Assembly (NCBI GenBank): GCA_040388575.1
Contig: JAZKBO010000001.1
Span: forward strand, 6,549 to 70,548
Source: Patescibacteria group bacterium
Lineage (GTDB): Bacteria > Patescibacteriota > Minisyncoccia > Phycocordibacterales > UBA9973
Direction: 5' to 3'
Length of the DNA: 64,000 nucleotides
Every line of letters begins with the position of its first letter. The first letter of the stretch is position 1. The notes below the pieces were generated by a model. The model was not told the DNA's origin, searched no databases, and saw nothing but the letters and a program-made list of their open reading frames with translations. Positions 21,514-64,000 of the stretch are shown here, piece by piece. A program made the translations under genes and the position numbers.

Positions 21514-23559
21514 TTGTGCTATATTGGACAGGTGAGTACAGATATTCCGCATTTATTGGGTCTAAATAAAGAACAGAGGGAGGCGGCACTTCATATGAAG
21601 GGGCCGATTTTGATAGTGGCTGGCGCTGGGGCGGGTAAAACAAAGACTATCACTCATAGAATAGTGAATTTGATCAAGGAAGGCGTGGCGCCAGAGCAAA
21701 TCTTGGCAGTAACCTTTACTAATAAGGCTGCTAAAGAAATGCGGGAGCGGATAATACAAGCACTGGAAGATAACTTCGCCGGTGATCCTTTTACTCAGGT
21801 CCTCGGATCTCCGGGTCCCTATCCCGGCCAGACCGTTCCTAAAAGCATCACCGGCTTCGTAAAAAGCCAACCTTTTGTCAGCACTTTTCACTCTCTGGGG
21901 GTGCATATAATCAAGGAAAATGCAGGGTTATTGGGCTTAACCAAGTATTTTACGATTTTGGACGAGTCGGATTCAATTTCCATAATAAAAGAGGCTCAAA
22001 AGGAGCTCGGCATAGATCCGAAACAGTATGAACCCAAGAAAATAAAGGGTATTATCAGCCGGGAAAAGGGTAAATTCACCAATTTGGCGGATTATAGTGA
22101 GCGAGCAGGCGATTACATGGGTAAAATTGTGGCTCAGGTGTGGAATTTATATGAAAAGAAAAAAGCGCAAGAAAACAGCCTCGACTTTGATGATTTAATA
22201 TTAAAATCTACTAAATTACTGAAAGATGATGTAGAGGTGCGACAAATGTATCAGGATAGGTGGCAATATATCCACATAGATGAGTATCAGGATACAAATG
22301 AGGTGCAATATTTGATGTCCCGGCTCTTGTCAGAAAAATACAAAAACATCTGCGTGGTGGGGGATGCAGATCAAAATATTTATTCCTGGCGCGGGGCAAA
22401 TTTGAAAAATATTTTAAGCTTTGAGAAGGATTATCCGAATGCCAAGATTGTACTATTGGAGGAAAATTACCGCTCCACTCAAAACATATTGGAGGCGGCT
22501 AATGAAGTAATCAAAAAAAATAAGTATCGCCCTGATAAAAATTTATTTACTAAAAATTTAGTGGGAGATAAAATTTCCATCTATGAAGCATTGGATGAAA
22601 CTGATGAAGCCGAATTCGTAGCAACAAAACTTTTGGAAATTGCCGACGTAGTCGAGAAAAAAGGCTTCGCTTTGAGTGAAATTGCAGTTTTGTATCGTGC
22701 GAATTTTCAATCACGCGCGCTGGAAGAAGCGATGCTGCGATACAATATTCCATATCAGGTGCTGGGTGTTAAATTTTTCGAAAGAAAAGAAATTAAAGAC
22801 ACGTTGGCATATCTGCGCGCAGCATTAAATCCGGAGAGCTTGTCCGACATAAAAAGAATAATAAACTTTCCAACTAGGGGAATTGGTAAGACCACTATTG
22901 CTAAGATTTTTTCTAACGATATGGAAAGTCTACCGATAAAAATGAGGCTGAAAATTAATAATTTCTATAATTTATTAACTGAAATAAAAGAAAAAATTGA
23001 GGTACTACCTGCGAGCCAAGTGATAAAATTTGTAGTTAAACGCTCCGGAATTGAGGATGAATTAAGTGCTGGGGACGAGGAAGAAAAGGAAAGATTGGAG
23101 AACATAAAAGAGCTTGCAACCTTGGCACTCAAATATGAAAATTTGCCAAATAGTGCTGGAATTGAAAGGCTTTTAGAGGATGCGGCCCTAGCCTCTGACC
23201 AGGATTCCTTGATCGAGCGCGGTGAAAAAAAGGAAGTAAAAGATGCGGTTAAACTAATGACGGTGCATGCATCTAAGGGGCTAGAATTTAAAAATGTTTT
23301 TATCACTGGCCTGGAAGATGGGCTCTTCCCGCATTCGAAGAACGGTGAAATAAAAAATGCTGAAGACAGCGAGGAGGAGCGCAGATTATTCTATGTAGCG
23401 CTCACTCGAGCAAAAGAAAAATTATATTTATCCTTTGCAAACTTCCGCACAATATTCGGCTCACGCTCGATTAACGCGCCGTCAGAATTTCTAGGCGACA
23501 TCCCTGCAGACTTACTAGAAAAAGAAGGCGAACAGAAAATTAAAACCATCTACATCTAG
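21514..23559 (+). CDS. uvrD: UvrD/PcrA-family ATP-dependent DNA helicase
   Basis: Motif I 'AGAGAGKTKTITHRI', 'VTFTNKAAKEMRERI', motif II 'IHIDEYQDTN', 'VGDADQNIYSWRGA'. Carries the in-frame ~60-bp element (copy 1). Confidence 0.9.
   Translation: MCYIGQVSTDIPHLLGLNKEQREAALHMKGPILIVAGAGAGKTKTITHRIVNLIKEGVAPEQILAVTFTNKAAKEMRERIIQALEDNFAGDPFTQVLGSPGPYPGQTVPKSITGFVKSQPFVSTFHSLGVHIIKENAGLLGLTKYFTILDESDSISIIKEAQKELGIDPKQYEPKKIKGIISREKGKFTNLADYSERAGDYMGKIVAQVWNLYEKKKAQENSLDFDDLILKSTKLLKDDVEVRQMYQDRWQYIHIDEYQDTNEVQYLMSRLLSEKYKNICVVGDADQNIYSWRGANLKNILSFEKDYPNAKIVLLEENYRSTQNILEAANEVIKKNKYRPDKNLFTKNLVGDKISIYEALDETDEAEFVATKLLEIADVVEKKGFALSEIAVLYRANFQSRALEEAMLRYNIPYQVLGVKFFERKEIKDTLAYLRAALNPESLSDIKRIINFPTRGIGKTTIAKIFSNDMESLPIKMRLKINNFYNLLTEIKEKIEVLPASQVIKFVVKRSGIEDELSAGDEEEKERLENIKELATLALKYENLPNSAGIERLLEDAALASDQDSLIERGEKKEVKDAVKLMTVHASKGLEFKNVFITGLEDGLFPHSKNGEIKNAEDSEEERRLFYVALTRAKEKLYLSFANFRTIFGSRSINAPSEFLGDIPADLLEKEGEQKIKTIYI
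21788..21846 (+). mobile_element. Copy 1 of a ~60-bp GC-rich repeat with inverted ends, inserted in frame in uvrD (encodes '...TQVLGSPGPYPGQTVPKS...')
   Basis: Core 'CAGGTCCTCGGATCTCCGGGTCCC...GGCCAGACCGTTC' shared with copies at 53230, 61323 and 63574. Ends cttttacTCAGG / CCGTTCctaaaag are inverted. Confidence 0.7.
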
Positions 23560-23564
23560 AATAT

Positions 23565-24338: not shown

Positions 24339-24423
24339 GGTGGTTTCAGAGCTTGCATGCTCAAAAAAGTGATATAATAAAAGGATAATCAAGTTAAATT
24401 GGTTAAAAAATAAAAGGGCGCTT

Positions 24424-25320: not shown

Positions 25321-25345
25321 AAAGGCTTATAGATAAAGGATAAAA

Positions 25346-29368: not shown

Positions 29369-29369
29369 A

Positions 29370-32750: not shown

Positions 32751-33224
32751 ATGCAATTCAAAGTACCACAATTTTTAGAAATAGAAGACAAGATATTTGG
32801 TCCTTTTACCTTCAGGCAATTTATTTACCTTATCGGTGGGGCAGGGGTATGCTTCGTCCTATATAGACTACTAGGATTCTGGTGGGGGGTTCTGCCTATT
32901 ATACTTTTGGCTGCTTTTTCTTTAGCACTAAGCTTCTACAAACCAAACAATAAACCATTTATCTTCATGGTTGAAGCTGCTTTCCATTATACATTACAAA
33001 GTAAATTGTATATCTGGAAAAAACCAGAGAATAGAGAGCGGAATAAAAAGGAAGAGGGAAGGGCAGCAGATAAAGCGGACAAAGCGCAGCAGGATTTTTA
33101 CGCAGCCATGGGTGGTGGTAAATTAAGTGGTAGTAAATTGCGGGATCTGGCGTGGAGTTTAGACGTGCTGGATTTAAATAAGCAGTCGAGTAATACCGGA
33201 GGGGAACCGATAATGAGGAAATAA
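32751..33224 (+). CDS. Small two-TM membrane protein, VirB3-like (by position and topology)
   Basis: 157 aa with two adjacent hydrophobic helices, immediately upstream of VirB4-like ORFs. Confidence 0.4.
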   Translation: MQFKVPQFLEIEDKIFGPFTFRQFIYLIGGAGVCFVLYRLLGFWWGVLPIILLAAFSLALSFYKPNNKPFIFMVEAAFHYTLQSKLYIWKKPENRERNKKEEGRAADKADKAQQDFYAAMGGGKLSGSKLRDLAWSLDVLDLNKQSSNTGGEPIMRK

Positions 33225-33897: not shown

Positions 33898-35814
33898 ATG
33901 TCTATATTTGATACATTATTAGGAAGAAGTGGGGGGAGTAAGACTGGAAAAGATTCCGAGTCTAGAGCGTCGGTGCTAGCAGTCATGCCGGAGAAGATTT
34001 ACCAAGATGCAAACTTGGAGCTTCAAGACGTCATCGCTCCATCGGCACTTAAAGTAGAGCCGAAATCCCTGAACTTGGGAGATAAAATTGCTCGCACCTT
34101 CTTTATCATATCGTATCCTAGGTATTTAACAGACAACTGGTTCTCGCCGATAATAAATTTGGATAAAATTTTTGATATTTCGATTTTTATTCACCCGATT
34201 GATACCTCACTTATCTTACGCCAGTTCCAAAAGAAAGTGGCCGAGGTAGAGAGTCAAATAAATGTACGGGAAGCCCGTGGAATGGTCCGCGACCCAATGC
34301 TTGATACCGCTTATCAGGACCTAGAAGGGCTGCGGGACAGCTTGATCCAGGCCCAAGAGAAGATGTTTGACGTTGGAATTTATATCACTATCTATGCGGA
34401 CAACGAACTCGAGCTCTTTAAGGTGGAGAATGAAATTAAATCCATGTTCGAATCCAAACTTATATACATTAAACCAGCACTATTCCAACAAGAGGAGGGT
34501 TTCAAAAGTGTAATACCACTCAATACGGACTTGTTAGGCATTCACCAAAAGCTAAACTCCGAGCCACTATCTTCGGTATTCCCATTTGTTTCCTTTGACC
34601 TAACGTCCGACAAAGGCATACTCTATGGAGTAAATAGGCATAACTCCAGCTTAGTTATTTTCGACAGATTTTCATTAGAAAACTATAATTCCGTAACTTT
34701 TGCTAAAGCTGGCTCTGGTAAATCCTACGCCACCAAGCTTGAAATCCTCCGCTCACTTATGTTCGATATTGATGTCATTGTTATCGACCCAGAGAGGGAA
34801 TATGAGTACTTAGCTGAAGCCGTGGGTGGCAGATATTTTAATATCTCACTTTCCTCCGACCACCACATCAACCCTTTTGACTTACCAATTCCACGTGAAG
34901 ATGAAACTGCGGAGGATGTGTTGCGCTCTAATATAATTAATCTAGTTGGCCTCTTCCGCTTAATGCTGGGGGGCCTAACTCCAGAAGAGGATTCAATGGT
35001 GGACCGGGCAATTTCAGAGACCTATGCAATAAAAGACATCACTCCAGAGTCTGACTTTGCTAATATTGAGCCGCCGCTTCTGGCAGACTTTGAAATGGTG
35101 CTCTCGGGTATGGACGGTAGCGACTCTGTAGTTCAGCGCTTAGCTAAATATACTCGTGGTTCCTGGGCAACCTTCCTAAATCGCCCCAGTAATGTGGATA
35201 TAAATAAAAAGTTCGTGGTTTTTTCTATCCGCGACATGGAGGATGAACTTAAGCCGGTAGCTATGTATATAGTCATGCACTATATATGGAATGCTATCCG
35301 CCGGAATTTGAAAAAGCGCCTCCTGGTAGTAGATGAGGCTTGGTGGATGATGAAGTCTGAAGATACCGCTTCCTTCCTTTATTCTATTGCAAAGCGCGGG
35401 CGCAAATATTATCTAGGCCTTGCGACTATCACCCAAGACGCAGCTGACTTTATGAACTCGCCTTACGGTGTGCCTATTGTCACCAACTCTTCTATCCAAT
35501 TACTCTTGAAACAGTCACCAGCGACAATTGATATATTGCAGAAAACTTTCAACCTCACCGATGAAGAAAAGTATTTACTTTTGGAATCCGGAATTGGAGA
35601 GGGGATATTCTTTGCCGGATTGAAGCACGTGGCCATAAAAATCGTGGCTTCTTATACAGAAGATCAGATAATTACCTCAGACCCTTCACAAATTTTATCC
35701 AATAGAAAAGCCAAAATAGAGCTCGAAGAGGGCAAGGTTGAGGATGAAAATCCTTGGAAGAGAATTGGCCTACCGAAAGAAGGTGAGGTCAAGGCTGAAG
35801 TGAAAAAGCCGTAA
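33898..35814 (+). CDS. VirB4/TraC/TrbE-like T4SS ATPase (C-terminal ATPase portion)
   Basis: Walker A 'AKAGSGKSYATK', Walker B 'LLVVDEAWWMM', 'LGLATITQD' motif. Confidence 0.85.
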   Translation: MSIFDTLLGRSGGSKTGKDSESRASVLAVMPEKIYQDANLELQDVIAPSALKVEPKSLNLGDKIARTFFIISYPRYLTDNWFSPIINLDKIFDISIFIHPIDTSLILRQFQKKVAEVESQINVREARGMVRDPMLDTAYQDLEGLRDSLIQAQEKMFDVGIYITIYADNELELFKVENEIKSMFESKLIYIKPALFQQEEGFKSVIPLNTDLLGIHQKLNSEPLSSVFPFVSFDLTSDKGILYGVNRHNSSLVIFDRFSLENYNSVTFAKAGSGKSYATKLEILRSLMFDIDVIVIDPEREYEYLAEAVGGRYFNISLSSDHHINPFDLPIPREDETAEDVLRSNIINLVGLFRLMLGGLTPEEDSMVDRAISETYAIKDITPESDFANIEPPLLADFEMVLSGMDGSDSVVQRLAKYTRGSWATFLNRPSNVDINKKFVVFSIRDMEDELKPVAMYIVMHYIWNAIRRNLKKRLLVVDEAWWMMKSEDTASFLYSIAKRGRKYYLGLATITQDAADFMNSPYGVPIVTNSSIQLLLKQSPATIDILQKTFNLTDEEKYLLLESGIGEGIFFAGLKHVAIKIVASYTEDQIITSDPSQILSNRKAKIELEEGKVEDENPWKRIGLPKEGEVKAEVKKP

Positions 35815-40492: not shown

Positions 40493-40538
40493 TTCCTCAT
40501 TCTATATGAAAATAAGGGAAAACGCTAGAATTTAAGAA

Positions 40539-40754
40539 TTATGGGACAGGGTCAAAGTGATTTTTTTGCCAAGGGTGGCAGCGCAAGATACGAAGAAATC
40601 CCAAGGAACTTCCTTTAAGTACTCCATATTTTTTTAAAGATTGTTTAGTGTATTCCGAGCAGGTGGGATAAAATTGACATCTACCTCCAAAAACTGCCGA
40701 GATGTATTTCTGGTAAAGATCAATTAATTTTATTAAGTATAGTCTTAATTTCAT
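40539..40754 (-). CDS. yidD: Membrane protein insertion efficiency factor YidD
   Basis: 'CQFYPTCSEYTKQSLKKYG...RILRCHPW' matches the YidD Cys/His pattern. Confidence 0.8.
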   Translation of the reverse strand: MKLRLYLIKLIDLYQKYISAVFGGRCQFYPTCSEYTKQSLKKYGVLKGSSLGFLRILRCHPWQKNHFDPVP

Positions 40755-41058
40755 TTTCGATTTCGGAAATGTTGCTTTGTGGGGTTTTAAAAACTAGTGT
40801 GCCCTGGATTCCAAGAGGGAAGCGGCTTAAATACTTTTCTAGCGCTTTGTAGCCACGGCGACGCAATGAATTACGCTTTACTGCACTTCCCGCAATGCTT
40901 TTTGGAGCAATAAAGGAAATTTGTGGTTTGCTGGGGCTATTATTTAGAAGAAATTTAAAGCTTAGGTTGGTTGAATTAACAAAACGCCCTCTTTTAAAAA
41001 TTTCGTCTACAACTTTAGTATTTGCTCTGTTTTTTTTGGGAAGCATAAATTCTCCCAA
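40720..41058 (-). CDS. rnpA: RNase P protein component
   Basis: Basic, ~110 aa. 'RLKKRGYKALEKY'-type RNR-like motif ('KRNSLRRRGYKAL'). Between rpmH and yidD. The start may be the Met at 41046. Confidence 0.8.
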   Translation of the reverse strand: MGEFMLPKKNRANTKVVDEIFKRGRFVNSTNLSFKFLLNNSPSKPQISFIAPKSIAGSAVKRNSLRRRGYKALEKYLSRFPLGIQGTLVFKTPQSNISEIENEIKTILNKIN

Positions 41059-41064
41059 GGGAGA

Positions 41065-41199
41065 TTATACTGAGAGTTTGGCTCGGCCTTTTCTCCTTCG
41101 GCGTAGGAGCACTTTTTTACCAGTTTTACTTCTAGAGCGCACTAAAAACCCGTGAGAACGGGCTCTTTTTCGCTTTTTAGGTTGATATGTAAATGACAT
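41065..41199 (-). CDS. rpmH: 50S ribosomal protein L34
   Basis: Hand-translated 44 aa '[44 protein letters not shown]', below the ORF-track length cutoff. Canonical rpmH-rnpA arrangement. Confidence 0.9.
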
Positions 41200-41345
41200 A
41201 TTCATAGCATACTAGAAAACTTGGTTTAAGTCAAAGAAGAAAAATGAGTAAAGAAATTGGGTTGAATACTTATCAACAGATTATCAACACGGTTAATAAG
41301 TTTTAGCAATTTGATTTTTACCGATAGGGAGTATAATGTGAAACT
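41200..41345. promoter_or_regulatory. oriC segment upstream of dnaA, with two tandem DnaA-box-like 9-mers TTATCAACA (41270-41278, 41281-41289)
   Basis: Direct reading. Divergent rpmH/dnaA intergenic region. Confidence 0.5.
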
Positions 41346-42695
41346 ATGAATGTGGAACAACTGTGGAAGAACTGTTTAGTTGAAATTGAAGGTGGACTCT
41401 CAAAAGCCAACTTCAGTACCTGGTTTAAAAACACATCTATTCTAAAGGAGGACACTGGTATAATTTACATTGGGGTGCCAAATGAGTTCGTTCGTGACTG
41501 GTTACGCAACAAATACCACAAGCTCATCACTAAAACTATTGCCGACGCTTACGAAAACATGCGTGCGGTAGAGTATATTATTACTAAAATAGAGGCTGAA
41601 AAGCATGAATTACCCCCTGGCACTAACAATGAGGTCTATGTAAACAAGGAATTACCTTTAAAAGACCTGTATATCAACCAGGAGGACAATTTAAACCCTC
41701 GTTACCACTTCAAGTCCTTTATCGTGGGTACTTTTAATGAGCTTGCGTATGCCGCATCCCAAGCTATCATCGACAGCCCTGGGACTAAGTACAATCCTTT
41801 CTTCGTTTACGGTGGCACTGGCCTCGGTAAGACTCATTTGATTCAGGCAGTTGGTAATGCAATAAAGGATAAGTATCCAAACAAGAAAGTTCATTATATG
41901 ACCTTAGAAAAGTTCGCTACCGACTTTATCAATGCCATTCAAAACAATAAAGCTAACACTTTTAAAGAAAAATACCGCAAATACGACCTCTTGATCATTG
42001 ATGATATCCAATTTATTGGGAAAATGGAGAAGATTCAGGAAGAACTTTTCCACACATTTAACACTTTTCACGAAAACAATAAGCAAATCATCTTCTCGAG
42101 TGATAAACACCCTAATTACATCCCAGAGTTAGCCGATCGGCTAAAGTCTCGATTTTCTGCGGGGATGATTGTGGATATCTCTGAGCCTGAGTATGAGTCC
42201 CGCCTAGCGATACTTAAGGTTAAGCTACGGGAGTTAAATATCGATTTAGACCCTGAAATTGTTGATTATATTGCTTCAACAGTGGATGGTAACGTGCGAG
42301 AGTTAGAGGGGAGTCTAAACACCATTGTTCTACAATATCGTTTAAAGAATAGACCCCTGCCACTTACTGAAGTAAAAAATTTACTTAAGAATAATTTACG
42401 TCCGAAGAAAAATATCGCAATAAAGGATGTAGTTAAGATCGTAAGCGGTTACTATAAGCTTGAGGAAACTTCTATTTATGAAAAAACTAGAAGGAAAGAG
42501 ATAGTTAAGGCTCGCCAAGTGGTAATGTACCTACTTCGGGAGGATTTTAATGTATCTTATCCACTTATTGGGCAAAAGATAGGTGGGAAAGATCATACAA
42601 CCGTCATCCATTCTTGTTTAAAAATAAAAACTGATCTGAAAAACGACCCACAACTTTTACAAGAATTAGAACAGATAAGAGTTATGTTTAAGTAA
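41346..42695 (+). CDS. dnaA: Chromosomal replication initiator DnaA
   Basis: Walker A 'GGTGLGKTHL', 'LLIIDDIQFI', and C-terminal HTH 'VKARQVVMYLLRE...IGQKIGGKDHTTVIH'. Confidence 0.95.
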   Translation: MNVEQLWKNCLVEIEGGLSKANFSTWFKNTSILKEDTGIIYIGVPNEFVRDWLRNKYHKLITKTIADAYENMRAVEYIITKIEAEKHELPPGTNNEVYVNKELPLKDLYINQEDNLNPRYHFKSFIVGTFNELAYAASQAIIDSPGTKYNPFFVYGGTGLGKTHLIQAVGNAIKDKYPNKKVHYMTLEKFATDFINAIQNNKANTFKEKYRKYDLLIIDDIQFIGKMEKIQEELFHTFNTFHENNKQIIFSSDKHPNYIPELADRLKSRFSAGMIVDISEPEYESRLAILKVKLRELNIDLDPEIVDYIASTVDGNVRELEGSLNTIVLQYRLKNRPLPLTEVKNLLKNNLRPKKNIAIKDVVKIVSGYYKLEETSIYEKTRRKEIVKARQVVMYLLREDFNVSYPLIGQKIGGKDHTTVIHSCLKIKTDLKNDPQLLQELEQIRVMFK

Positions 42696-42828
42696 CCTAA
42701 AGTTATCCCTGTGAAATCAAAAATTTTTAAAGCAAAAAACCTTTATAAATAAAAGTAAAACAGATTTATCCACTTACACACACACCTAATAGTACTAATA
42801 GATTAAATATATAAACTATAAACATATT
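42696..42828. promoter_or_regulatory. oriC segment between dnaA and dnaN: DnaA boxes TTATCCCTG (42704-42712) and TTATCCACT (42766-42774) flanking an AT-rich unwinding stretch
   Basis: Direct reading. Classic dnaA-dnaN intergenic origin. Confidence 0.5.
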
Positions 42829-43926
42829 ATGAAGTTGGAATGTGAAATAGAAAAAATTAAAAACGGTTTCTCTCAAGCTGAAAGAATTACAGGTAAGAAC
42901 TTAACACTACCAGTTCTAAATTCAATTCTTTTAATAGCTTCTAATAAATCACTGAAATTGAGAGCTACAAACTTGAGCCTTGGAGTTGAGATAGAAATAC
43001 CAGCTAAGATAGAAAAAGAGGGAATAGTGGCAATATCTGGGTCAGTACTTTCTGGAATTTTTTCAAATGTTGCCGAGGGAGGCACTGTAAAACTAGAAGA
43101 TAGTGATGGGAATCTAGTTGTTAAAACAAAAAAGAGTAATATAAAACTCAAAGGCCAACCCCACGATGATTTTCCCACCATCCCCACCGTGACTGGTAAA
43201 ACCATTGAAATAGAAGCTAAAAAGCTCGTAGACGGGATTAAATCCGTTTATTATAGTTCCTCACCTTCAGATATTAAGCCTGAAATTTCAAGTGTTTATA
43301 TATATACCAACGAAGATAACTTAGTGTTTGTTTCTACAGATTCTTTTCGACTTGCGGAGAAAAAAATAAAAACCAAAAAACAAGAAGAAGTTCCAGGGAT
43401 ATTAATTCCATTTAAAAATATACCCGAAATTCTAAGAATCTTCGGAGAAATTTCAGGTAATATTAAAGTTTGTTTTAATAAAAACCAAATCTCTTTTTCT
43501 GGAGAGAATATTTATCTAACATCTAGGGTAATAGATGGAATTTTTCCAGACTATCGCCAGATCGTTCCAAAAGAAAGTACTACTGAGGTTGTGCTTTTAA
43601 AACAAGATTTACTAAATGCACTAAAACTCTCGAATATTTTTTCCGATAAATTTAACCAAGTTAATTTAACTGTAAATCCAAAAGAAAAACTTTTTGAACT
43701 TTCTTCCGCCAACAACGACATCGGAGAAAACAAAACTTACTTAGACGCTGCCATAAAAGGGGAGGCTATCGAGCTTGGGTTTAATTATCGATACTTTTTA
43801 GACTGTTTTCAGTCAATCAATTCTGATAGTATCTCCATTAAACTAAACGGCGCCTCTAAACCCATACTAATATCACCAGTTGGTGACAACTCCTTTACTT
43901 ACCTCATAATGCCGATGAATAGATAA
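42829..43926 (+). CDS. dnaN: DNA polymerase III beta sliding clamp
   Basis: 365 aa with three-domain clamp architecture, directly downstream of dnaA. Confidence 0.9.
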   Translation: MKLECEIEKIKNGFSQAERITGKNLTLPVLNSILLIASNKSLKLRATNLSLGVEIEIPAKIEKEGIVAISGSVLSGIFSNVAEGGTVKLEDSDGNLVVKTKKSNIKLKGQPHDDFPTIPTVTGKTIEIEAKKLVDGIKSVYYSSSPSDIKPEISSVYIYTNEDNLVFVSTDSFRLAEKKIKTKKQEEVPGILIPFKNIPEILRIFGEISGNIKVCFNKNQISFSGENIYLTSRVIDGIFPDYRQIVPKESTTEVVLLKQDLLNALKLSNIFSDKFNQVNLTVNPKEKLFELSSANNDIGENKTYLDAAIKGEAIELGFNYRYFLDCFQSINSDSISIKLNGASKPILISPVGDNSFTYLIMPMNR

Positions 43927-46825: not shown

Positions 46826-47998
46826 ATGGATAAGATAGAAGAGCTGCTAACTCGCGGAGTAGATAAAATTTACCCCTCTAAGGAGGCACTAGAGGAATTG
46901 CTGCGATCTGGTAAAAAATTAAAGTTATACCAAGGCTTTGACCCTACGGGCGACAAACTACATATAGGGCATATGGTAGGTCTACGTAAACACAGACAAT
47001 GGCAAGATCTAGGCCATGAGGTTATTTTCCTTATCGGCGATGGCACGGGTGAAGCAGGTGACCCAACCGGCAAAAAGAAAACCAGAGAAAAATTCTTCAC
47101 TAGTGAAGAGTTGCGCGCCAACGCAAAAGATTACCTTACTCAAGCTTCCAAGGTTGTACGTTTTGACGGGGCTAATCCAATTAAAATAATGTACAACGGA
47201 GAATGGTTAAATAAATTAACCAAGACCGAAATTTTAAATATTGCGGAACATTTTTCAGTACAGCAATTGATTGAGAGGGATATGTTTCAAGAACGTTTAA
47301 AGGCAGGTGAATCCATAAACCTTCGAGAATTCTTATATCCTTTACTTCAGGCTTATGACTCTGTGGTGTTGGAAGTAGACCTAGAGTTGGGGGGATCCGA
47401 CCAGACATTTAATATGTTGGCCGGACGTATGCTAGCCCGCGCGATGAAAGGCAAAGAAAAATTAGTTATGACCACCCCACTCCTTTCTGACTCTAAAGGA
47501 GTAAAAATAGGTAAAAGTGAAAATAATGTAATTGGTTTAACGGATCAAGCTCCTGACTTGTTCGGTAAAATAATGTCTCTAAGTGACGATGTTATTATCC
47601 CAATGTTTGAATATTTAACAGATGTACCGATGGCTGAGGTTAAATCCTTTAATCTTAAGAAGGATGCCATGAGCCTAAAAAAGAAAGTCGCTCATCTTAT
47701 TGTCGCACAGCTTCACGATGAAAAATCGGCCCAGGAAGCAGAAGATAACTTCAGTAACACTTTTCAAAAAGGAAAAATACCGGAAGTTATGGCTGAACTT
47801 GGGGGGAATAGTGAGAGCTTAATGGATATTTTAGTAAAAACTAAAAGTCTATCTTCTAAGAGTGAATATCGCCGCTTAGTAAAAGAAGGTGCAGTCACTG
47901 ATTTGGAATCTGATGAAAAAATATCTGACCCTGATTTTATTCCCAAAGAAGGACAAAGCTTTAAGATAGGTAAAAAAACATTTATTAAAATAATCTAA
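46826..47998 (+). CDS. tyrS: Tyrosyl-tRNA synthetase
   Basis: 'HIGH' ('LHIGHMVGL'), KMSKS-like 'KIGKS', and C-terminal S4-like domain. Confidence 0.85.
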   Translation: MDKIEELLTRGVDKIYPSKEALEELLRSGKKLKLYQGFDPTGDKLHIGHMVGLRKHRQWQDLGHEVIFLIGDGTGEAGDPTGKKKTREKFFTSEELRANAKDYLTQASKVVRFDGANPIKIMYNGEWLNKLTKTEILNIAEHFSVQQLIERDMFQERLKAGESINLREFLYPLLQAYDSVVLEVDLELGGSDQTFNMLAGRMLARAMKGKEKLVMTTPLLSDSKGVKIGKSENNVIGLTDQAPDLFGKIMSLSDDVIIPMFEYLTDVPMAEVKSFNLKKDAMSLKKKVAHLIVAQLHDEKSAQEAEDNFSNTFQKGKIPEVMAELGGNSESLMDILVKTKSLSSKSEYRRLVKEGAVTDLESDEKISDPDFIPKEGQSFKIGKKTFIKII

Positions 47999-48007
47999 CT
48001 AAACAAA

Positions 48008-48033
48008 ACACCCCGAGCGGGGTGTTTTGTTTA
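48008..48033. terminator. Bidirectional rho-independent terminator (AAAACACCCCGAGCGGGGTGTTTTGTTT)
   Basis: Perfect 7-bp GC stem flanked by A-run and T-run. Sits between tyrS (+) and a small minus-strand ORF. Confidence 0.7.
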
Positions 48034-48171
48034 GTGGTCTTTGTCGGGGTCGTCGTCGGTATCCTCATCAAATCTAAAGTCATTGATGGCACCCTCCTCT
48101 AAGGGTTCCAGTAATTCATCATCACCGTCGCCCTCTACTTTAAACCCTGCATCGTCATCGTCGTAACTCAT
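48031..48171 (-). CDS. Possible 46-aa highly acidic small protein
   Basis: Hand-translated 'MSYDDDDAGFKVEGDGDDELLEPLEEGAINDFRFDEDTDDDPDKDH'. The stop overlaps the terminator stem. No homology support. Confidence 0.25.
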   Translation of the reverse strand: MSYDDDDAGFKVEGDGDDELLEPLEEGAINDFRFDEDTDDDPDKDH

Positions 48172-48864: not shown

Positions 48865-49100
48865 ACCCGAATCCCGGGAGGCTGCGTCACAACGAGGTGA
48901 CGAATGACCCGAACGACCACGGCCACGCGCGGAGCTCCGAAGATGGCGGCCAGCTCCACCCATGCGAATGCGAACCAGGTCCGGCAGGCGAAGCAGGGCG
49001 GCGGCACGAACGAGGCGACGGGCACCACGAAGGCGGCGTAGCCAAGCCGGGGCGGGGGAGGCCATCGGGCTTCCCCTCGCCTCGGCGAGGTACAGTATTC
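48865..49100 (+). ncRNA. ffs: Candidate signal recognition particle RNA (long, Bacillus-type form), GC-rich structured RNA
   Basis: A ~65% GC stretch of about 230 nt in an AT-rich genome with no convincing ORF. It contains 'CCAGGTCCGGCAGGCGAAGCAGG', close to the universal SRP RNA domain IV 'CCAGGUCCGGAAGGAAGCAGC'. Terminal segments are complementary (cgggaggc / gcctcgg). Confidence 0.45.
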
Positions 49101-52269: not shown

Positions 52270-54720
52270 ATGAAAAAGAATGATAAAAAGAGCTCGCAGA
52301 CGCTGGTTTTGCTGGATGCGCATGCCATAATTCACCGCGCATACCATGCCTTGCCGGACTTCATGTCATCTCGCGGGGAGCCTACCGGGGCCCTGTATGG
52401 ACTTTCGAGTATGTTGATGAAGATTATCCCAGAGCTAAAACCGGATTACATAGTGGCTTGTTATGATTTGCCGGGGAAAACCTTTCGGCATGAGGCCTAT
52501 GATGATTATAAGGCTGGCCGAGCTAAGACGGATGAAGCCCTCATAGCTCAATTGAAAAAGTCTAGGCAGATTTTCGAGGCTTTTAATATACCCATTTACG
52601 ACGCTCCCGGATTTGAAGCGGATGACGTGCTCGGCACCATTGTAGAAAAATTAAAAAAAGATAAAACCAAAAATATTATCATCGCCTCGGGAGACATGGA
52701 CACCATGCAGCTGGTAGATGATAAAAAAGTGCAGATATATACATTGAAAAAGGGGATTACAGACACCATTTTATATGATGAGGACAAAGTAGTAGAGAGG
52801 TTTGGCTTTAAGCCATTACTTTTGCCAGACTATAAAGGCTTGCGTGGAGACCCGTCTGACAACATTATTGGTATTAAGGGCATAGGTGAAAAAACTGCCA
52901 CTACGCTCATTACCCAATTTGGCACCATTGAGGAAATTTATAAAAAAATTAAGAAGGAACCGGAAAGTTTTGCTAAAGCAGGGTTAAGCCCACGACTAAT
53001 TGAGCTTATTAAAAATAATGAAGAAGAGGCTATTTTTTCCAAAACTCTAGCAAAAATACGACGTGATGCGCCAGTAGACTTCAAAATACCAGACAAAACA
53101 TTCTGGGAAGCCGCCGATCTTAAAAAAATTGAAAAGATGTTTGCAGATTTTGAATTTCGATCCCTCTTTACTCGCTTGAAAAACTTTTTCGGCAAAGGCG
53201 AGAAGCAAAACCCGGGAGCGAATTTAGCAGAATTTTCTCAGGTCCTCGGATCTCCGGGGCCCCACACCCCGGCCAGACCGTTCCAAAATTCTCTAAATTC
53301 GCTCCCGGAAAAAAAAGTTGACGCTACTAAACTTCAAGAAGCGAGTATCGCCTTGTGGCTTATTAATTCCGACATAGCCAACCCGACATTGGAGGATATT
53401 TTTCTTTTTTCTAGAACTGAAGTATTCGAAGATGCGTACGAATTTATTTTTAAAAAGTTAAAGGAGAATAACTTAACCCTGGTATATGAAGAAATAGAAA
53501 AACCAATAATGCCTGTGGTGGAGGCAATGCAGGACTACGGAGTTTTGATTGATCAAAAATATTTTGAAAAACTATCTACAGAATATCATAAAGAGCTGGA
53601 CCTACTAACGGCTAAGATTTATAAAATGGCGGGAACGGAGTTCAATATCAACTCGCCCAAGCAATTAGGGGAGGTGCTATTCGGCAAAATGGGCTTGAAA
53701 ACTAAGAAGAAAGGAGCAAATGGGGCATTCTCGACCAAGATTTCAGTCTTAGAAGAGCTAGAAGAAGGCAACCCAATCATTAGTGAAATCATGGCTTACC
53801 GCGAGCTTCAAAAGTTACTTTCAACCTATATCGATGTCATCCCGAAGATGGTATCTCCCGATGGACGCTTGCATGCTAAGTTTATCCAAAATGGGTCTAC
53901 TACCGGCAGATTTTCTTCCCAAGATCCGAATTTGCAAAATTTACCAATCAAAAGTGAACTCGGTAAAAGAATCCGCGGTGGGTTCGTGGCGGCAAAGGGC
54001 TATAAACTTTCAGCTTTTGATTACAGCCAGATTGAACTGCGAGTTGCGGCGATGCTCTCGGGTGATAAAAACATGACTCAAATTTTTAAAGATAGGAAGG
54101 ACATTCATGCGGGTGTAGCCTCCCGCGTTTTCGGCGTGCCGATAGATAAAATAGATGCGGAAATGCGTCGTCAAGCAAAAGTTATAAACTTCGGTATCAT
54201 TTATGGCATGGGCGTTACTGCACTGCGTAAAAACTTGGGTGGCACCCGTGAAGAAGCGCAAAAATTTTACGATAATTACTTCAATCAATTTTCTGGCGTT
54301 AGGGAATACATGGAAGAAGTTAAAAAGTTTGCAGTTGAGCATACATATACTGAGACGTTGTTTGGTAGGCGTAGATATTTCCCCAACATTCGATCCCGAA
54401 TTCCATTCCTAAAAAATATGGCAGAGCGTACTGCTACTAATGCACCACTACAAGGTACCGCTGCGGATATTATCAAGCTGGCTATCAGATATGCCAATGA
54501 AGATATTATAAAAGCTGGGTTACAAGACAAGGTCCACCTCATACTTCAAATCCACGATGAGTTGGTATATGAAATAAAAGACGAGGCATTAAGTGAAGCT
54601 GACGCAATAATAAAAAAAGCCATGGAGGCTGTGTTGCAAAGCTCATATTTGCATTACAAAACCGATATTCCACTCATTGTTCACTCCGGTTCCGGCAATA
54701 ATTTAGAGGAGGTAAAATAG
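52270..54720 (+). CDS. polA: DNA polymerase I (5'-nuclease plus polymerase domains; short, 3'-5' exo region likely reduced)
   Basis: 5'-nuclease 'LLDAHAIIHRAYHA'. Pol motifs 'DYSQIELR', 'RRQAKVINFGIIYG', 'QIHDELVYE'. Carries in-frame element copy 2. Confidence 0.9.
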   Translation: MKKNDKKSSQTLVLLDAHAIIHRAYHALPDFMSSRGEPTGALYGLSSMLMKIIPELKPDYIVACYDLPGKTFRHEAYDDYKAGRAKTDEALIAQLKKSRQIFEAFNIPIYDAPGFEADDVLGTIVEKLKKDKTKNIIIASGDMDTMQLVDDKKVQIYTLKKGITDTILYDEDKVVERFGFKPLLLPDYKGLRGDPSDNIIGIKGIGEKTATTLITQFGTIEEIYKKIKKEPESFAKAGLSPRLIELIKNNEEEAIFSKTLAKIRRDAPVDFKIPDKTFWEAADLKKIEKMFADFEFRSLFTRLKNFFGKGEKQNPGANLAEFSQVLGSPGPHTPARPFQNSLNSLPEKKVDATKLQEASIALWLINSDIANPTLEDIFLFSRTEVFEDAYEFIFKKLKENNLTLVYEEIEKPIMPVVEAMQDYGVLIDQKYFEKLSTEYHKELDLLTAKIYKMAGTEFNINSPKQLGEVLFGKMGLKTKKKGANGAFSTKISVLEELEEGNPIISEIMAYRELQKLLSTYIDVIPKMVSPDGRLHAKFIQNGSTTGRFSSQDPNLQNLPIKSELGKRIRGGFVAAKGYKLSAFDYSQIELRVAAMLSGDKNMTQIFKDRKDIHAGVASRVFGVPIDKIDAEMRRQAKVINFGIIYGMGVTALRKNLGGTREEAQKFYDNYFNQFSGVREYMEEVKKFAVEHTYTETLFGRRRYFPNIRSRIPFLKNMAERTATNAPLQGTAADIIKLAIRYANEDIIKAGLQDKVHLILQIHDELVYEIKDEALSEADAIIKKAMEAVLQSSYLHYKTDIPLIVHSGSGNNLEEVK
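53230..53291 (+). mobile_element. Copy 2 of the ~60-bp GC-rich inverted-end repeat, in frame in polA (encodes '...SQVLGSPGPHTPARPFQNS...')
   Basis: Same core as the other copies. Ends GAATTTTCTCAGG / CCGTTCCAAAATTC are mutually inverted. Confidence 0.7.
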
Positions 54721-59901: not shown

Positions 59902-59937
59902 AGCGACGCCCACGTCAGCTGGGCGTCGCTATTTCTG
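59902..59937 (+). terminator. Rho-independent terminator after the IMPCH-like gene
   Basis: AGCGACGCCCA-cgtcagc-TGGGCGTCGCT followed by ATTTCT. Confidence 0.5.
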
Positions 59938-60055
59938 TAAATAATAAAAATAGAGTCTTTAAAAATACTTTAATATAAAAAGAGAAAGACGGCAGGAAGT
60001 GATGCGCGCCTGCGCGTTCTTCTCTGCCGTCGCTTGCTGTTTCGAACAGGCGCCA

Positions 60056-60355: not shown

Positions 60356-60507
60356 TTTGAGTTCTCCTGTTGACTTCCGGGCTTACATTACCACTTTTTA
60401 GAAATTCGTCAATTTGGAAATTTTGTGATACAATATAGATAATTAAATATTGATACACACCCCAATAGAAGCAGGCGGGGTGTAATTGTGTTGTATAGTG
60501 AAAAACC

Positions 60508-63183
60508 ATGAAAAAGCAAGAAAATATAGATAAAATAACGATAAAGGGAGCCAGAACGCACAACCTAAAGAATGTGGATGTGGAAATGCCACGCAATAAA
60601 ATGATTGCGATTACGGGCGTTTCAGGGAGTGGCAAAAGCTCACTCGCTTTTGATACAATTTTCGCCGAAGGGCAACGCAGATATGTAGAGTCGCTATCTT
60701 CTTACGCACGCCAATTTCTAAACCAAATGCCTAAGCCGGATGTGGATGAAATAACTGGCCTCTCACCAGCAATTTCTATCGATCAAAAATCTCGCTCCAA
60801 TAACCCGCGTTCCACGGTGGCTACAATTACAGAAATTTATGATTACCTTCGCGTCATGTACGCACGTATCGGGCACCCACATTGCCCTATCTGCGGCGAG
60901 GAGATTAAAAAGCTTTCGAATGAGCAAATCCTTAATTTTATTTTAGATAAAGTAAAAACTTTTGAAAAAGGTAAGAAAAGAAAAGTTATGGGTGTAGAGT
61001 GGGATGAAACGGAGATAAGTATTTACTCGCCGGTGGTGCGCGGCAGGAAAGGGGAATATTATCAATTGCTGTACGATTTACTCGGGAAAGGATTTTCTGA
61101 AATTCGCCTTGATGGCGTAAAAAAGAAGCTCCGCGAGCAAATCACCCTTTCTAAGAATAAAGCGCACAATATTGATATCCTTGTGGATCATTTTGCAGTG
61201 CATGAATTTACAGACAATAAAGAAAGCAGCCGGATGCGCTTGGCGGAAGCTGTGGAAAGGGCGCTTATTGAGTCTGATGGATTGGTAACAATTGCTTTCG
61301 GTAATCCTGCGCAGAAGAACACCTTTTCTTCAGGTCCTCGGATCTCTGGGTCCCTCCCCCAGCCAGACCGTTCAGAAAAGCTTTCTTCTGCTCCGGAAGA
61401 GTTCGTTATGTCCGCCAAATTTGCCTGCAAGAATGATGGCTTTTCTTTTCCAGAAGTGGAGCCGCGCCTTTTCTCTTTCAACTCACCTTACGGTGCGTGT
61501 CCTGCATGTAACGGCCTCGGTACAAAATATTTCGGCGGCGATGAACCATGTGAATCTTGCCATGGTGCCCGCCTGCGCCCGGAGGCACTAAATGTTTTCA
61601 TTTCTACCGGGCATACTCGCAAAAATATTCTGGATTTAGCGGAGCTATCAATTGCTGACGCTCATGAATTTTTTAAAAATCTTAAACTTTCCGACCAAGA
61701 AAAGGAAATTTCCGTGCCAGTGGTGAAGGAGATTGAAGCCCGGCTGGAGTTCATGCTCGATGTTGGACTCGACTATTTACAGTTATCTCGTAAGGCTAAC
61801 ACGCTCTCGGGCGGGGAAGCCCAGAGAATAAGGCTGGCTTCCCAACTGGGCTCTAGGCTCGTAGGGGCACTATATGTGCTGGATGAGCCTACGATTGGAC
61901 TACATCAGCGGGACAATGACCGCTTAATAAAAACCTTGCTGCATTTGCGCGACTTAGGGAACACAATTTTAATTGTGGAGCACGATGAAGACACAATTTA
62001 CGCTTCGGATTACATAGTGGACATCGGGCCTAAGGCCGGAGTGCATGGGGGTAAAATAATTGTCTCTGGATATTTAGATGAGCTTCTAACTGCCAAAAAG
62101 AATACAAATAATTCTAGAACTCTCGCATACTTGCGAGGTGAAGAAAAAATAGAAGTACCTAAAAAACGCCGGGAAGCTAAGGGTCAGTTGCGAATCGTTG
62201 GCGGTAAAGCATTTAATATTAAAAATATGAATGTGGAAGTGCCGCTTGGCGTGATGACTTCTATCACTGGCGTGTCAGGCTCGGGTAAAAGCTCCTTAAT
62301 GTATGAAATTTTATATAAAAACCTACAAGCACGTTATGAGCGCAAGTATCGTACTGCTCAAACATTCAATTGTGCGAGTTTTTCAGGGACAGAATACTTA
62401 ACAAGAGCAATTTTGATCGATCAGTCACCAATTGGCCGCACACCGCGCTCCAATATTGCAACCTACACTGGAACTTTTACACACATTCGTGATTTGTTTG
62501 CCACTACTGAAGAAGCGCGGCTACGTGGCTGGAAGGCAAACCGCTTTTCTTTCAATGTTCGTGGTGGCCGCTGTGAAGCGTGTGAAGGTAATGGTGAGAT
62601 AGCAGTAGAGATGCACTTCCTGCCCACGGTTTACGTTACCTGTGATGTTTGTGATGGTAAACGCTTTGATAAAGAAACTTTGACGGTAAAATACAAAAAG
62701 AAAAATATTTATGAAGTGTTAAAAATGACAGTGGAAGAGGGGCTTACATTCTTTAAAGATATCCCAGCTGTTTCTGATAGATTACAAACACTCATTGATG
62801 TGGGGCTGGGCTACCTCGAGCTCGGGCAGAGCGCCACCACACTCTCGGGTGGGGAAGCGCAGCGAGTAAAAATCTCCAGCGAGTTATTCCGTCCTCATTA
62901 TGAAAAGACCATTTATTTACTGGATGAGCCCACAGTAGGGCTACATTATGACGATGTGCAAAAGCTCCTGGAAGTGCTCAATAAGCTTGTAAACAAAGGG
63001 CATACCGTCGTCTTGATCGAACACAACCTCGACATAGTTAAAAGCTCGGATTACATTATAGACATAGGGCCCGAGGGAGGCGTAAAGGGTGGGCACTTGG
63101 TAGCAAAAGGTACACCAGAGGAAGTGGCCAATAATCCTAAAAGTTATACCGGAAAGTATCTTAAAAAGGTATTGAGGAAATGA
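60508..63183 (+). CDS. uvrA: Excinuclease ABC subunit A
   Basis: Two ABC modules ('GVSGSGKSSLAFDT', 'LSGGEAQRIRLA', 'GVSGSGKSSLMYE', 'LSGGEAQRVKIS') and zinc modules. Carries in-frame element copy 3. Confidence 0.95.
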   Translation: MKKQENIDKITIKGARTHNLKNVDVEMPRNKMIAITGVSGSGKSSLAFDTIFAEGQRRYVESLSSYARQFLNQMPKPDVDEITGLSPAISIDQKSRSNNPRSTVATITEIYDYLRVMYARIGHPHCPICGEEIKKLSNEQILNFILDKVKTFEKGKKRKVMGVEWDETEISIYSPVVRGRKGEYYQLLYDLLGKGFSEIRLDGVKKKLREQITLSKNKAHNIDILVDHFAVHEFTDNKESSRMRLAEAVERALIESDGLVTIAFGNPAQKNTFSSGPRISGSLPQPDRSEKLSSAPEEFVMSAKFACKNDGFSFPEVEPRLFSFNSPYGACPACNGLGTKYFGGDEPCESCHGARLRPEALNVFISTGHTRKNILDLAELSIADAHEFFKNLKLSDQEKEISVPVVKEIEARLEFMLDVGLDYLQLSRKANTLSGGEAQRIRLASQLGSRLVGALYVLDEPTIGLHQRDNDRLIKTLLHLRDLGNTILIVEHDEDTIYASDYIVDIGPKAGVHGGKIIVSGYLDELLTAKKNTNNSRTLAYLRGEEKIEVPKKRREAKGQLRIVGGKAFNIKNMNVEVPLGVMTSITGVSGSGKSSLMYEILYKNLQARYERKYRTAQTFNCASFSGTEYLTRAILIDQSPIGRTPRSNIATYTGTFTHIRDLFATTEEARLRGWKANRFSFNVRGGRCEACEGNGEIAVEMHFLPTVYVTCDVCDGKRFDKETLTVKYKKKNIYEVLKMTVEEGLTFFKDIPAVSDRLQTLIDVGLGYLELGQSATTLSGGEAQRVKISSELFRPHYEKTIYLLDEPTVGLHYDDVQKLLEVLNKLVNKGHTVVLIEHNLDIVKSSDYIIDIGPEGGVKGGHLVAKGTPEEVANNPKSYTGKYLKKVLRK
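61323..61384 (+). mobile_element. Copy 3 of the ~60-bp GC-rich inverted-end repeat, in frame in uvrA (encodes '...FSSGPRISGSLPQPDRSEKLSS...')
   Basis: Near-identical to copy 4 including the ends CTTTTCTTCAGG / CCGTTCAGAAAAGCTTT. Confidence 0.75.
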
Positions 63184-64000
63184 AATCTGAATTTTTAAAA
63201 AAACAGAACAAAGGAAAAGGTTTGCCAGACAAGCCCGGAGTGTATTTCTTTTTGCAAGATAAAAAAATAATCTATATTGGTAAAGCTACATCACTGCGGA
63301 GCCGGACCAAAAGTTATTTTAGTCCGGATTTAATAAATACTCGCGGGCCGGTAACACTAGAGATGGTATTCAAGGCCAATAATATTAAATGGCAGGAGAC
63401 GGATTCCGTATTAGAAGCGTTAATCCTCGAAGCGAACCTGATAAAAAAATACCAACCTTATTACAATATTAAAGAAAAGGATGATAAAAGTTGGAACTAT
63501 GTTTGCATAACTCGTGAAAAATTACCCAAAGTTCTTATTCTTCGTGCTAAGCAGCTCGTGATCTTCAAAGGAAAAAGCTTTTCTTCAGGTCCTCGGATTC
63601 CTGGGTCCCTCCCCCAGCCAGACCGTTCAGAAAAGCTTTATTCCTTCTCCGCTTGTTACGGTCCGTATACTAGCGGTCCGCAACTACAGGAAGCAATGAA
63701 GATAATTAGGCGGATTTTTCCATACCTGGATGATAAAAGTAAAAATTATCTGCAATTTTATAAACAAATTGACCTAGTGCCGGACCTAGAGGATAGAAAA
63801 AAATATTTAAGAAATATTAAAAACTTAAAACTATTCTTCGAAGGAAAGAAAAAAAGAATTTTGAGTAATCTTAAAAAAGAAATGAAAGCTTATGCCAAAG
63901 TGCGTGCTTTCGAAAAAGCAGGGGAAGTAAAGAAACAAATTTTTGCACTCGAGCACATTAATGATGTTGCACTCCTTAAAGAGGATAAAAATATAACTTC
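63180..64000 (+). CDS. uvrC: Excinuclease ABC subunit C, N-terminal part (continues beyond the window)
   Basis: ATG overlaps the uvrA stop (ATGA). GIY-YIG 'KPGVYFFLQDKKIIYIGKATSLRSR'. Carries in-frame element copy 4. Confidence 0.9.
   Translation, partial: MKSEFLKKQNKGKGLPDKPGVYFFLQDKKIIYIGKATSLRSRTKSYFSPDLINTRGPVTLEMVFKANNIKWQETDSVLEALILEANLIKKYQPYYNIKEKDDKSWNYVCITREKLPKVLILRAKQLVIFKGKSFSSGPRIPGSLPQPDRSEKLYSFSACYGPYTSGPQLQEAMKIIRRIFPYLDDKSKNYLQFYKQIDLVPDLEDRKKYLRNIKNLKLFFEGKKKRILSNLKKEMKAYAKVRAFEKAGEVKKQIFALEHINDVALLKEDKNIT
63574..63639 (+). mobile_element. Copy 4 of the ~60-bp GC-rich inverted-end repeat, in frame in uvrC (encodes '...FSSGPRIPGSLPQPDRSEKLYS...')
   Basis: AAAGCTTTTCTTCAGGTCCTCGGATTCCTGGGTCCCTCCCCCAGCCAGACCGTTCAGAAAAGCTTT with perfect 11-bp terminal inverted repeats. 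Confidence 0.75.

Follow-up and report, generated by a model that had tools for sequence, protein, structure and literature searches.

The closest described counterparts of the element considered here are the Rickettsia palindromic elements (RPEs; Ogata et al. 2000, summarised in PMC10969869), repeats of about 100-150 bp dispersed through a small, reduced genome. They lie both between genes and in frame within housekeeping open reading frames (ORFs), where read-through adds a peptide at tolerated positions of the host protein; several families coexist, and copies decay. Palindromic repeats with all of these habits are also found in an unrelated lineage, the Patescibacteria or Candidate Phyla Radiation (CPR), and the case set out below starts from a 64,000-nt stretch of a Patescibacteria group bacterium (contig JAZKBO010000001.1), hereafter the window, in which uvrD, polA, uvrA and uvrC each carry one in-frame copy of an 85-97 bp hairpin. 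We regard this hairpin family as probably a selfish, translated, RPE-like small palindromic DNA element of the Patescibacteria, one that appears functionally equivalent to the RPEs and is analogous to them, likened by behaviour and not by sequence, without being a member of their family. The original prediction, made from the window's letters alone, had called the repeat RPE-like or MITE-like (for miniature inverted-repeat transposable element); the first label suits its behaviour, whereas the second does not, given the lack of target duplication (uvrA and uvrC sites) and of conserved termini. Its author knew of no such family in this kind of genome, and we likewise found no description for CPR/Patescibacteria, including in a 2024 review of prokaryotic MITEs.

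Apart from their hosts and their length, RPEs differ from the Patescibacteria element in several respects: here conservation lies in a GC-rich tip and the arms vary from subfamily to subfamily, reading in every frame and in either orientation yields no conserved peptide, the tip flips at a fixed site, and the host genes are biased towards enzymes that handle DNA or tRNA, whereas RPE hosts are described as functionally unrelated. The coding palindromes of Nematomorpha mitochondria (PMC6649704) are likewise long, near-perfect inverted repeats in translated genes with both arms coding, dynamically gained and lost, and with arm complementarity apparently maintained at the DNA level. Their arms, however, encode conserved host protein, and they have neither a common core nor a dispersed family, whereas the Patescibacteria hairpin is added to the host gene and has a conserved tip. 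The Correia/NEMIS, ERIC, BOX and RUP repeats are similarly small, non-autonomous, palindromic, dispersed, co-transcribed with their neighbours and sometimes intragenic with open frames, but they are mostly extragenic and have family-wide terminal inverted repeats and target duplications (TA for Correia), neither of which the Patescibacteria element has. REP/BIME repeats, finally, are extragenic sequences of 20-40 nt with a GTAG head, mobilised by RAYT proteins (IS200/IS605-like Y1 transposases) that recognise the hairpin. Recognition of a hairpin rather than of terminal repeats, the lack of target duplication and possible orientation effects would all suit the present element, which nevertheless is 85-97 nt long, often intragenic and without a GTAG head; no RAYT/TnpA gene turned up in our material, although no systematic search for one was made. 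Unusual in the family are the pairing of a conserved tip with variable arms, the in-situ flips, the re-use of one site by different hairpin families, and the host bias.

Searching the window with a 24-nt core at up to 3 mismatches returned four matches, against 0.00 expected from 100 shuffles, and these coincide with the positions proposed originally (21788-21846, 53230-53291, 61323-61384 and 63574-63639). A covariance model trained on 26 copies and run with filters off scored the same four at 78-88 bits (E 1e-16 to 1e-18) and found no fifth copy in the window, the next-best match having an E value of 0.29. All four lie on the + strand, each within a + strand ORF, and the assignment of these ORFs to uvrD, polA, uvrA and uvrC was upheld by Pfam matches, homologues and synteny (Table 1); the window polA is syntenic with polA genes bearing Pfam 5_3_exonuc and DNA_pol_A at three of the loci that we fetched from other assemblies (L036-L038; loci are numbered with the prefix L). 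Two reading frames are indeed used, giving QVLGSPGP in uvrD and polA and SGPRISGSLPQPDRS in uvrA and uvrC, within the longer translations ...FTQVLGSPGPYPGQTVPKS... in UvrD/PcrA and PAQKNTFSSGPRISGSLPQPDRSEKLSSAP in UvrA. The core is free of stops in all three sense frames and has a GC content of 67-73%, compared with 41.8% for the window, both as had been claimed. The size and ends of the element need correction: the 59-66 bp given originally did include inverted repeats, but the full hairpins span 85-97 nt, and the "short inverted ends" are truly inverted but are only the inner portions of arms of 15-25 bp.

Table 1. Hairpin copies in the window and the genes that carry them
Feature	Position	Strand	Remarks
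Hairpin copy 1	21776-21860	+	Within uvrD/pcrA; 87.8 bits
Copy 1, arms	21778-21793 / 21840-21855		16-nt, 94% complementary; GC-rich core 21796-21838
Hairpin copy 2	53212-53308	+	Within polA, in the linker after the 5'-3' exonuclease domain; folding z -7.95
Copy 2, outer arms	53212-53227 / 53293-53308		100% complementary; core 53239-53283
Copy 2, inner arms			TAGCAGAATTTTCTC and AAAATTCTCTA
Hairpin copy 3	61305-61397	+	Within uvrA; core 61331-61373
Copy 3, arms			GCAGAAGAA..TTTTCT and AGAAAAG..TTCTTCTGC
Hairpin copy 4	63566-63650	+	uvrC, between GIY-YIG domain and UVR motif; 82.9 bits
Copy 4, arms	63567-63584 / 63629-63646		Core 63586-63628
uvrD/pcrA	21514-23559	+	681 aa; Pfam UvrD-helicase 2.4e-85, UvrD_C 2.3e-68
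polA	52270-54720	+	816 aa; PolA-like by sequence and synteny; host ORFs of L007/L008 75-80% identical
uvrA	60508-63183	+	891 aa; homologues named excinuclease ABC subunit A, 83-87% identical
uvrC, 5' part	63180-64000, past window end	+	Pfam GIY-YIG and UVR; aligned with UvrC of L035-L039

Every window copy folds as a single stable hairpin under both RNA and DNA parameters, with z-scores of -4.0 to -8.0 and -2.1 to -7.5, respectively, and consists of AT-rich arms of 15-25 bp and a GC-rich tip of 43-45 nt. From base to tip the hairpin comprises an outer stem of 15-25 bp that differs between copies, an inner TTTTYTC / RAAAA stem, an internal loop, a 4-bp helix (GGUC/GACC), a box CUCGGAUCU, a short variable hairpin (CCGGG..CCCGG, CUGGG..CCCAG and others) and a box GGCCAGACCGUUC. 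In DNA letters, the two conserved boxes flanking the small variable hairpin are AGGTCCTCGGATCTC and GGCCAGACCGTTC, with the consensus AGGTCCTCGG(A/T)TCTC and GGCCAGACC(G/A)TTC. Stop codons are absent from the tip in every sense frame and in nearly all antisense frames. Within a copy the arms are mutually inverted, but they differ between subfamilies, so the conserved portion of the family is the tip, and its ends and termini are the part that varies.

That the hairpin is an insertion follows from the comparison of filled and empty alleles. The window UvrA was aligned with 120 homologues of 83-87% identity. Of these 121 sequences, 34 carry an insert of at least 10 residues at the window's site; in the other 87 the loop, which mostly reads IKIGEEEF, is extended by fewer than 10 residues. 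The filled alleles include 11 peptides of the sense type (that of the window among them, and in different frames), 7 of the antisense type, decayed or shortened forms, and a different family (RRSHSILEGQ...SSEYSSED). Filled and empty alleles are interspersed when ordered by similarity, an ordering too poorly resolved to tell a single ancient insertion from recurrent ones. At the DNA level, the empty uvrA allele of L038 reads TCT TTC GGT TCC GAA GAA GAG TTC, whereas the window reads GCT TTC GGT AAT, then 87 nt of hairpin, then GAA GAG TTC; the difference is 27 codons (81 nt), with about 87 nt gained and about two codons of the empty allele lost or changed. The empty allele has neither arm, and therefore both arms belong to the insert. 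No direct repeat of at least 3 bp is present at the junctions of filled and empty alleles in uvrA or uvrC, that is, there is no target-site duplication, and the empty uvrA site is itself a small palindrome (TTCGG TT CCGAA).

The other hosts tell a similar story. Four of six UvrC relatives (L035, L037, L038 and L039) are empty where the window has a net gain of 75 nt; L030 has gained 69 nt with another subfamily, and L036 has a different insert. The UvrD orthologue in L023 is without the window's insert at that site and has an antisense copy at another. The added segment was expected to occupy a surface loop, and in the solved UvrA structure 2R6F the 35 residues of the window replace a tolerated 6-residue connection, residues 255-260; this alignment took the place of an AlphaFold2 model built from 41 close homologues, whose mean pLDDT was 40. 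Sequence that matches the 3' arm is still found in the uvrA alleles ISSAPEEF (L035) and ISFASQEF (L036). These alleles had suggested that an arm might be an inverted duplicate of the host flank, an idea we rejected because the L038 empty allele has neither arm and because arms are common to copies in different genes; judging from their sequence, the best reading of these two alleles is a partial deletion that spared the 3' arm.

Searches of the kind proposed at the outset show that the family is dispersed, within and between genes, through about 30 other Patescibacteria contigs. Exact matches to both boxes occur in 17 stretches of a species-representative collection (185,579 species genomes) and in a further 17 metagenome stretches. 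The genome records are labelled Nomurabacteria, Paceibacterota, Saccharibacteria or Patescibacteria, with the sole exception of one Acidobacteria record that is probably a chance match. Viral contigs gave no match to the exact box pattern and thus no evidence for a phage vehicle. The covariance model adds more diverged copies in these and other fetched loci, with box variants that include GGTTCTC and GACCATTC. Subfamilies can be told apart: in one, the tip hairpin is replaced by GAGGGAGGACGAGGAG, and in the GAGGGAGG subfamily all six exact-pattern copies are essentially identical in the tip. A short RecJ copy (L011 3104-3176) has no tip hairpin (GGTCCTCGGAAAAAATCCCCAGACC), and a composite UvrC copy (L030 6493-6614, - strand) has an extra GC-rich hairpin nested after GGTCCTCG. 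A search of 1.84 billion representatives with a 30-position profile of the encoded peptide returned no match at E <= 0.001, which we count as a technical failure.

About one third of the copies are intergenic, and the remainder are in frame within genes. The intergenic copies take up nearly the whole spacer, 4-24 nt from the adjacent ORFs and in either orientation, and many of them lie 6-17 nt upstream of a start codon. In every in-gene copy examined the host frame is kept and stops are absent, and across the family all three sense frames as well as antisense frames are read through; translation of the inserts is thus predicted from intact frames. The copy number per genome and the census of hosts rest on about 340 kb (window plus loci), selected in part by the motif.

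At orthologous sites the tip is found in opposite orientations. At the UvrA site the window has the tip in sense orientation, and L037 and L039 have it in antisense between homologous arms. At the PolA site the window shares the sense orientation with L007 and L008, the tip is antisense in L036 and L037, and L038 has a different hairpin family there. The arms, for their part, travel with the tip. In each arm of a uvrB copy in L036, 17-19 of 22 nt agree with an intergenic copy in L016 and with the copies that polA carries in L008, L007 and the window; these polA copies also have the same tip hairpin as the uvrB copy, and the L016 copy has another one. The arms of the uvrC copy in L030 likewise resemble those at the uvrA site. 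Since arms are shared between copies in different genes, it is the whole hairpin that is the duplicated unit, its arms define subfamilies, and they are not derived from the target sequence. Different tip subfamilies also occupy orthologous sites of Tgt, a NifS-like enzyme and UvrC in different genomes. These swaps, taken together with the identity of tips within a subfamily, seem to mean that tips are transferred from copy to copy or that elements repeatedly re-insert at the same permissive sites.

Sites are re-used by other repeats as well. The polA hairpin of L038 (4510-4615) has perfect 15-bp arms (GTACCCCTTGATGAT / ATCATCAAGGGGTAC), encodes ...RRSHSILEGQ..SSEYSSE..., and has ends faintly like the boxes (GTTCTCGGA, GCGAGCGACG); its peptide recurs in the UvrA homologues P0040, P0074, P0087, P0094 and P0098 at the same sites as the studied element. 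What looks like another small GC-rich repeat, a mini-insert of 12-13 residues with the sequence PARNA(S/T)HSDAGG (CCTGCCCGCAATGCTTCGCATAGCGATGCAGGCGGG), is present in UvrC of L037 (13044-13079) and at the UvrA site of P0009, P0032, P0058 and P0117. A second UvrA insertion hot spot lies at window residue ~155 (window ~60970), where the window is empty and 27 of the 121 sequences, among them P0008, P0010, P0024, P0061, P0062 and P0073, have segments of 10-38 residues from other repeat families (e.g., NFSGLTLPGVPGGTHTVQNSSS, NLAASPSLRGLRHGLDFPSS). In UvrD of L023, a second, unrelated hairpin (1163-1241) stands beside the antisense copy, with 23-nt perfect arms (AAAGCGAAGCTGGTGATTTTTTC / GAAAAAATCACCAGCTTCGCTTT) and the direct repeat GGAGGAGAGAGAAAAAAT twice around it.

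The choice of host genes appears uneven. Nine replication and repair genes (uvrD, dnaA, dnaN, ruvC, ruvB, polA, uvrB, uvrA and uvrC) make up about 22% of the bases of the window and hold all four copies (p ~0.002 under length-proportional insertion), and there are none in the large Pfam-less ORFs at 18-39 kb. The observation that all four hosts are repair or replication enzymes is thus correct as to their identity, but part of the bias is explained by the fact that polA-uvrB-uvrA-uvrC form one conserved syntenic cluster. Elsewhere, the hosts at exact-pattern loci are TrmD, Tgt, RecJ, a NifS-like desulfurase, PheT, the CCA-adding enzyme, TruB, LeuRS, PolA, UvrD and UvrC, to which the covariance model adds Dus (L003), UvrA (L030) and UvrB (L036, a locus fetched around uvrA). 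Protein lengths point the same way: as a control, 113 of 120 PilB/T2SSE homologues (73-82% identical) are 563-566 aa long, and at the syntenic loci the neighbouring ABC transporter, amidase and SpoU are constant in length while UvrA, UvrB, UvrC, RuvA and Fpg vary by 20-80 residues. A bias towards enzymes acting on DNA or tRNA therefore appears real; it may reflect the tolerance of long, weakly expressed multidomain enzymes. GC skew in the window follows gene orientation, shows no switch at dnaA and is uninformative on copy orientation relative to replication.

If the element is selfish, as we think probable, its life cycle might run as follows. The whole 85-97 bp hairpin would move as a single unit and insert, without target duplication, into intergenic spacers and into the parts of genes that code for loops and linkers, and within genes only copies whose length is divisible by three and whose frame is open would survive. 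Such copies would be transcribed and translated with their host, adding a functionless loop of 25-30 residues whose sequence is presumably irrelevant, since every frame and both orientations occur. Complementarity of the arms would be kept at the DNA level by arm-to-arm conversion or template switching in an extruded hairpin, as has been proposed for coding palindromes (PMC6649704). The tip would flip in situ by recombination or template switching between the inverted arms, and copies would finally erode or be deleted. The conserved boxes would most simply be the site recognised by whatever trans-acting enzyme copies or moves the element. The rival readings taken up below (a signal in the DNA, a regulatory hairpin in the mRNA, a classical MITE) account for fewer of the observations.

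Several observations weigh against this account. No transposase or other mobilising gene was seen among the Pfam-scanned ORFs of the window or in the fetched loci, and without such a gene, target duplications or conserved termini nothing supports the step of transposition. Conservation of the tip and inner arms also far exceeds what would be expected of selfish DNA decaying at one locus. When the window, L007 and L008 are compared, identity is 90-97% over the polA hairpin and 99-100% over its central ~75 nt, against 70-72% nucleotide identity for the rest of polA and 46-49% at third positions of conserved codons, and the outer arms differ by paired changes that keep complementarity. The PheT copies of L017 and L034, in hosts that are 60% identical, similarly have the same tip loop and one compensatory pair change. 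In addition, in-gene copies with exact boxes are sense in 18 cases and antisense in 2, which could hint at a constraint at the level of the transcript; the loci fetched around uvrA hold 1 sense and 4 antisense copies. Finally, the near restriction of hosts to enzymes acting on DNA or tRNA is not what random selfish insertion predicts.

Some of these difficulties would be eased if the tip were the recognition site of a CPR system that acts on extruded hairpins or cruciforms, be it a structure-specific machinery that mobilises or recombines DNA, or a signal for uptake or recombination. We hold this possibility only tentatively. By copying the tip between sites, such a system would explain why tips at orthologous sites agree to the nucleotide, why the same sites hold different tip types in different genomes (the GAGGGAGGACGAGGAG subfamily), why tips flip in situ and why copies are concentrated in DNA-repair and tRNA-processing genes.

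A related but unlikely proposal is that the hairpin tip acts as a signal in the DNA, either of use to the host or driven through the population; it might mark DNA for uptake or recombination, or bind a nucleoid or repair protein. Such a signal could pass from one related lineage to another through the uptake of DNA that then replaces homologous conserved genes, and not by transposition. Uptake sequences in Neisseria and Pasteurellaceae are 9-12 bp long, occur about once per kb and arise by point mutation, not as insertions; those of Neisseria and Haemophilus are reported to show a bias towards genome-maintenance genes. The present element resembles them in being a conserved sequence that is found in either orientation (UvrA and PolA sites), with box conservation well above background, and in its over-representation in genome-maintenance genes, here together with tRNA enzymes. 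The same sites are filled in orthologues that are 45-70% identical (Tgt, NifS-like, TruB, PheT and UvrC), and the PilB and T2SSE genes present are compatible with pilus-based DNA uptake. On the other side, what is conserved is ~45 nt inside a hairpin insertion of ~90 bp, the density is as low as 4 copies per 64 kb and 17 exact-match stretches among the species genomes, many alleles have decayed or been lost without visible consequence, and no receptor or binding protein was identified.

The pairing pattern bears on a third alternative, which we think less likely again, namely that the hairpin is a cis-acting structured RNA in mRNAs and in 5' or intercistronic regions, for example a site for RNase III or an RNA-binding regulator that would coordinate the expression of DNA-repair and tRNA-processing genes. 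Over 26 copies, 86% of the cells of the alignment are paired, compared with 65% in shuffled and 35-54% in slid controls; 20 of 28 pairs change on both sides, and none of 500 shuffles reaches the observed values. Such pairing, the folding z-scores, the excess of sense copies, the many copies shortly before start codons and the coherent functional class of the hosts would all suit an RNA. Covariation of this kind is, however, also expected from arm-to-arm conversion of a DNA palindrome. In the stems of 32 copies, 672 of 737 aligned positions (91%) are Watson-Crick, and G:T (11) does not exceed A:C (15), so that the wobble excess expected of a structure selected as RNA is absent. Antisense copies stand at the same sites in close relatives with their boxes still recognisable, and most orthologues are without the element, which therefore cannot be an essential regulator. 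Rfam 15 contains no matching family (only tRNAs reach the gathering score, and the best relaxed matches, at E 0.3-8, are generic long hairpins). Without wobble excess or an Rfam family, and with both orientations at one site, the element looks like a DNA palindrome and not an RNA motif; the strand-specific conservation and fixed orientation that are generic to cis-regulatory RNAs were not observed.

More specific candidates were also set aside. A bulge-helix-bulge intron, a K-turn and the known small ribozymes were rejected from the sequence, their defining motifs being absent, and an intein, an intron or translational bypassing appears incompatible with a kept host frame, with the absence of stops and with an insert too small for an intein or a self-splicing intron. 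Thirteen nucleotides of a tRNA-Lys gene in L036 (4566-4639; variable loop, T stem and start of the T-loop) are identical to the 5' box in its variant form AGGTCCTCGGTTC. This is probably a generic or chance resemblance, given that the window, L037 and L038 have a different T stem in their tRNA-Lys; an origin of the element from tRNA was rejected on this ground and because the remaining element does not align.

It is very improbable that the family consists of classical MITEs, deletion derivatives of an insertion sequence that are moved in trans by a transposase through terminal inverted repeats. The size would fit, flanking inverted repeats are present, and the copies are dispersed in subfamilies with common arms, but the uvrA and uvrC sites have no target-site duplication, the outer ends differ between subfamilies with the centre as the conserved portion, orphan half-elements flanking a gene were not convincingly found in the ~340 kb of window and loci, and no transposase domain is present in the Pfam-scanned ORFs of the window. 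Ancestral protein sequence or an assembly artefact can be practically discounted, as nothing beyond the presence in conserved genes speaks for either, while the segment is missing from most close orthologues and from solved UvrA structures, the same nucleotides are read in different frames and orientations, and a repeat dispersed through independent NCBI, JGI and ENA assemblies from many samples is not an artefact of assembly.

The genomes of CPR/Patescibacteria are tiny, and little selfish DNA would be expected in them; predicted translated hairpins in uvrA, uvrB, uvrC, uvrD, polA, recJ and genes for tRNA enzymes would mean that mobile palindromes account for some of the variation in length among core proteins of the radiation. 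The covariance model gives annotators a way to recognise such inserted segments, and the filled alleles amount to a natural experiment on which loops of repair enzymes tolerate 25-30 extra residues. The architecture itself, with its conserved tip, arms that evolve freely yet always remain complementary, inversion in situ, shared sites and biased choice of hosts, points to an uncharacterised mechanism at the DNA level, which might be hairpin conversion, structure-specific mobilisation or biased recombination.

A few other features of the window were recorded along the way. The + strand ORFs of 18427-39258 are mostly without Pfam matches (1024, 1340, 777, 344, 321, 374 and 445 aa) and include a PrgI-family protein (32751-33224) and a TraG/VirB4-like ATPase (33898-35814), so this run may be a type IV secretion or conjugation-like cluster; hairpin copies are absent from it except for the uvrD copy at its edge. 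At 14001-18000 the local GC content is 53%, against 42% for the window, with overlapping ORFs at 15308-16366 (-) and 15440-17011 (+) that have no Pfam match. Two further inverted repeats lie outside the studied family: a perfect 18-bp palindrome (ACTAAACAAAACACCCCG / CGGGGTGTTTTGTTTAGT) at 47998-48035, directly 3' of a Tyr/Trp-tRNA synthetase gene and likely a terminator, and a GC-rich imperfect inverted repeat at 49011-49084 between ruvC and ruvB. The region 40493-43926 holds dnaA (41346-42695) and dnaN (42829-43926), preceded by ~850 bp of non-coding sequence after yidC and jag; this non-coding stretch, where GC skew makes no clear switch, is the probable replication origin region.

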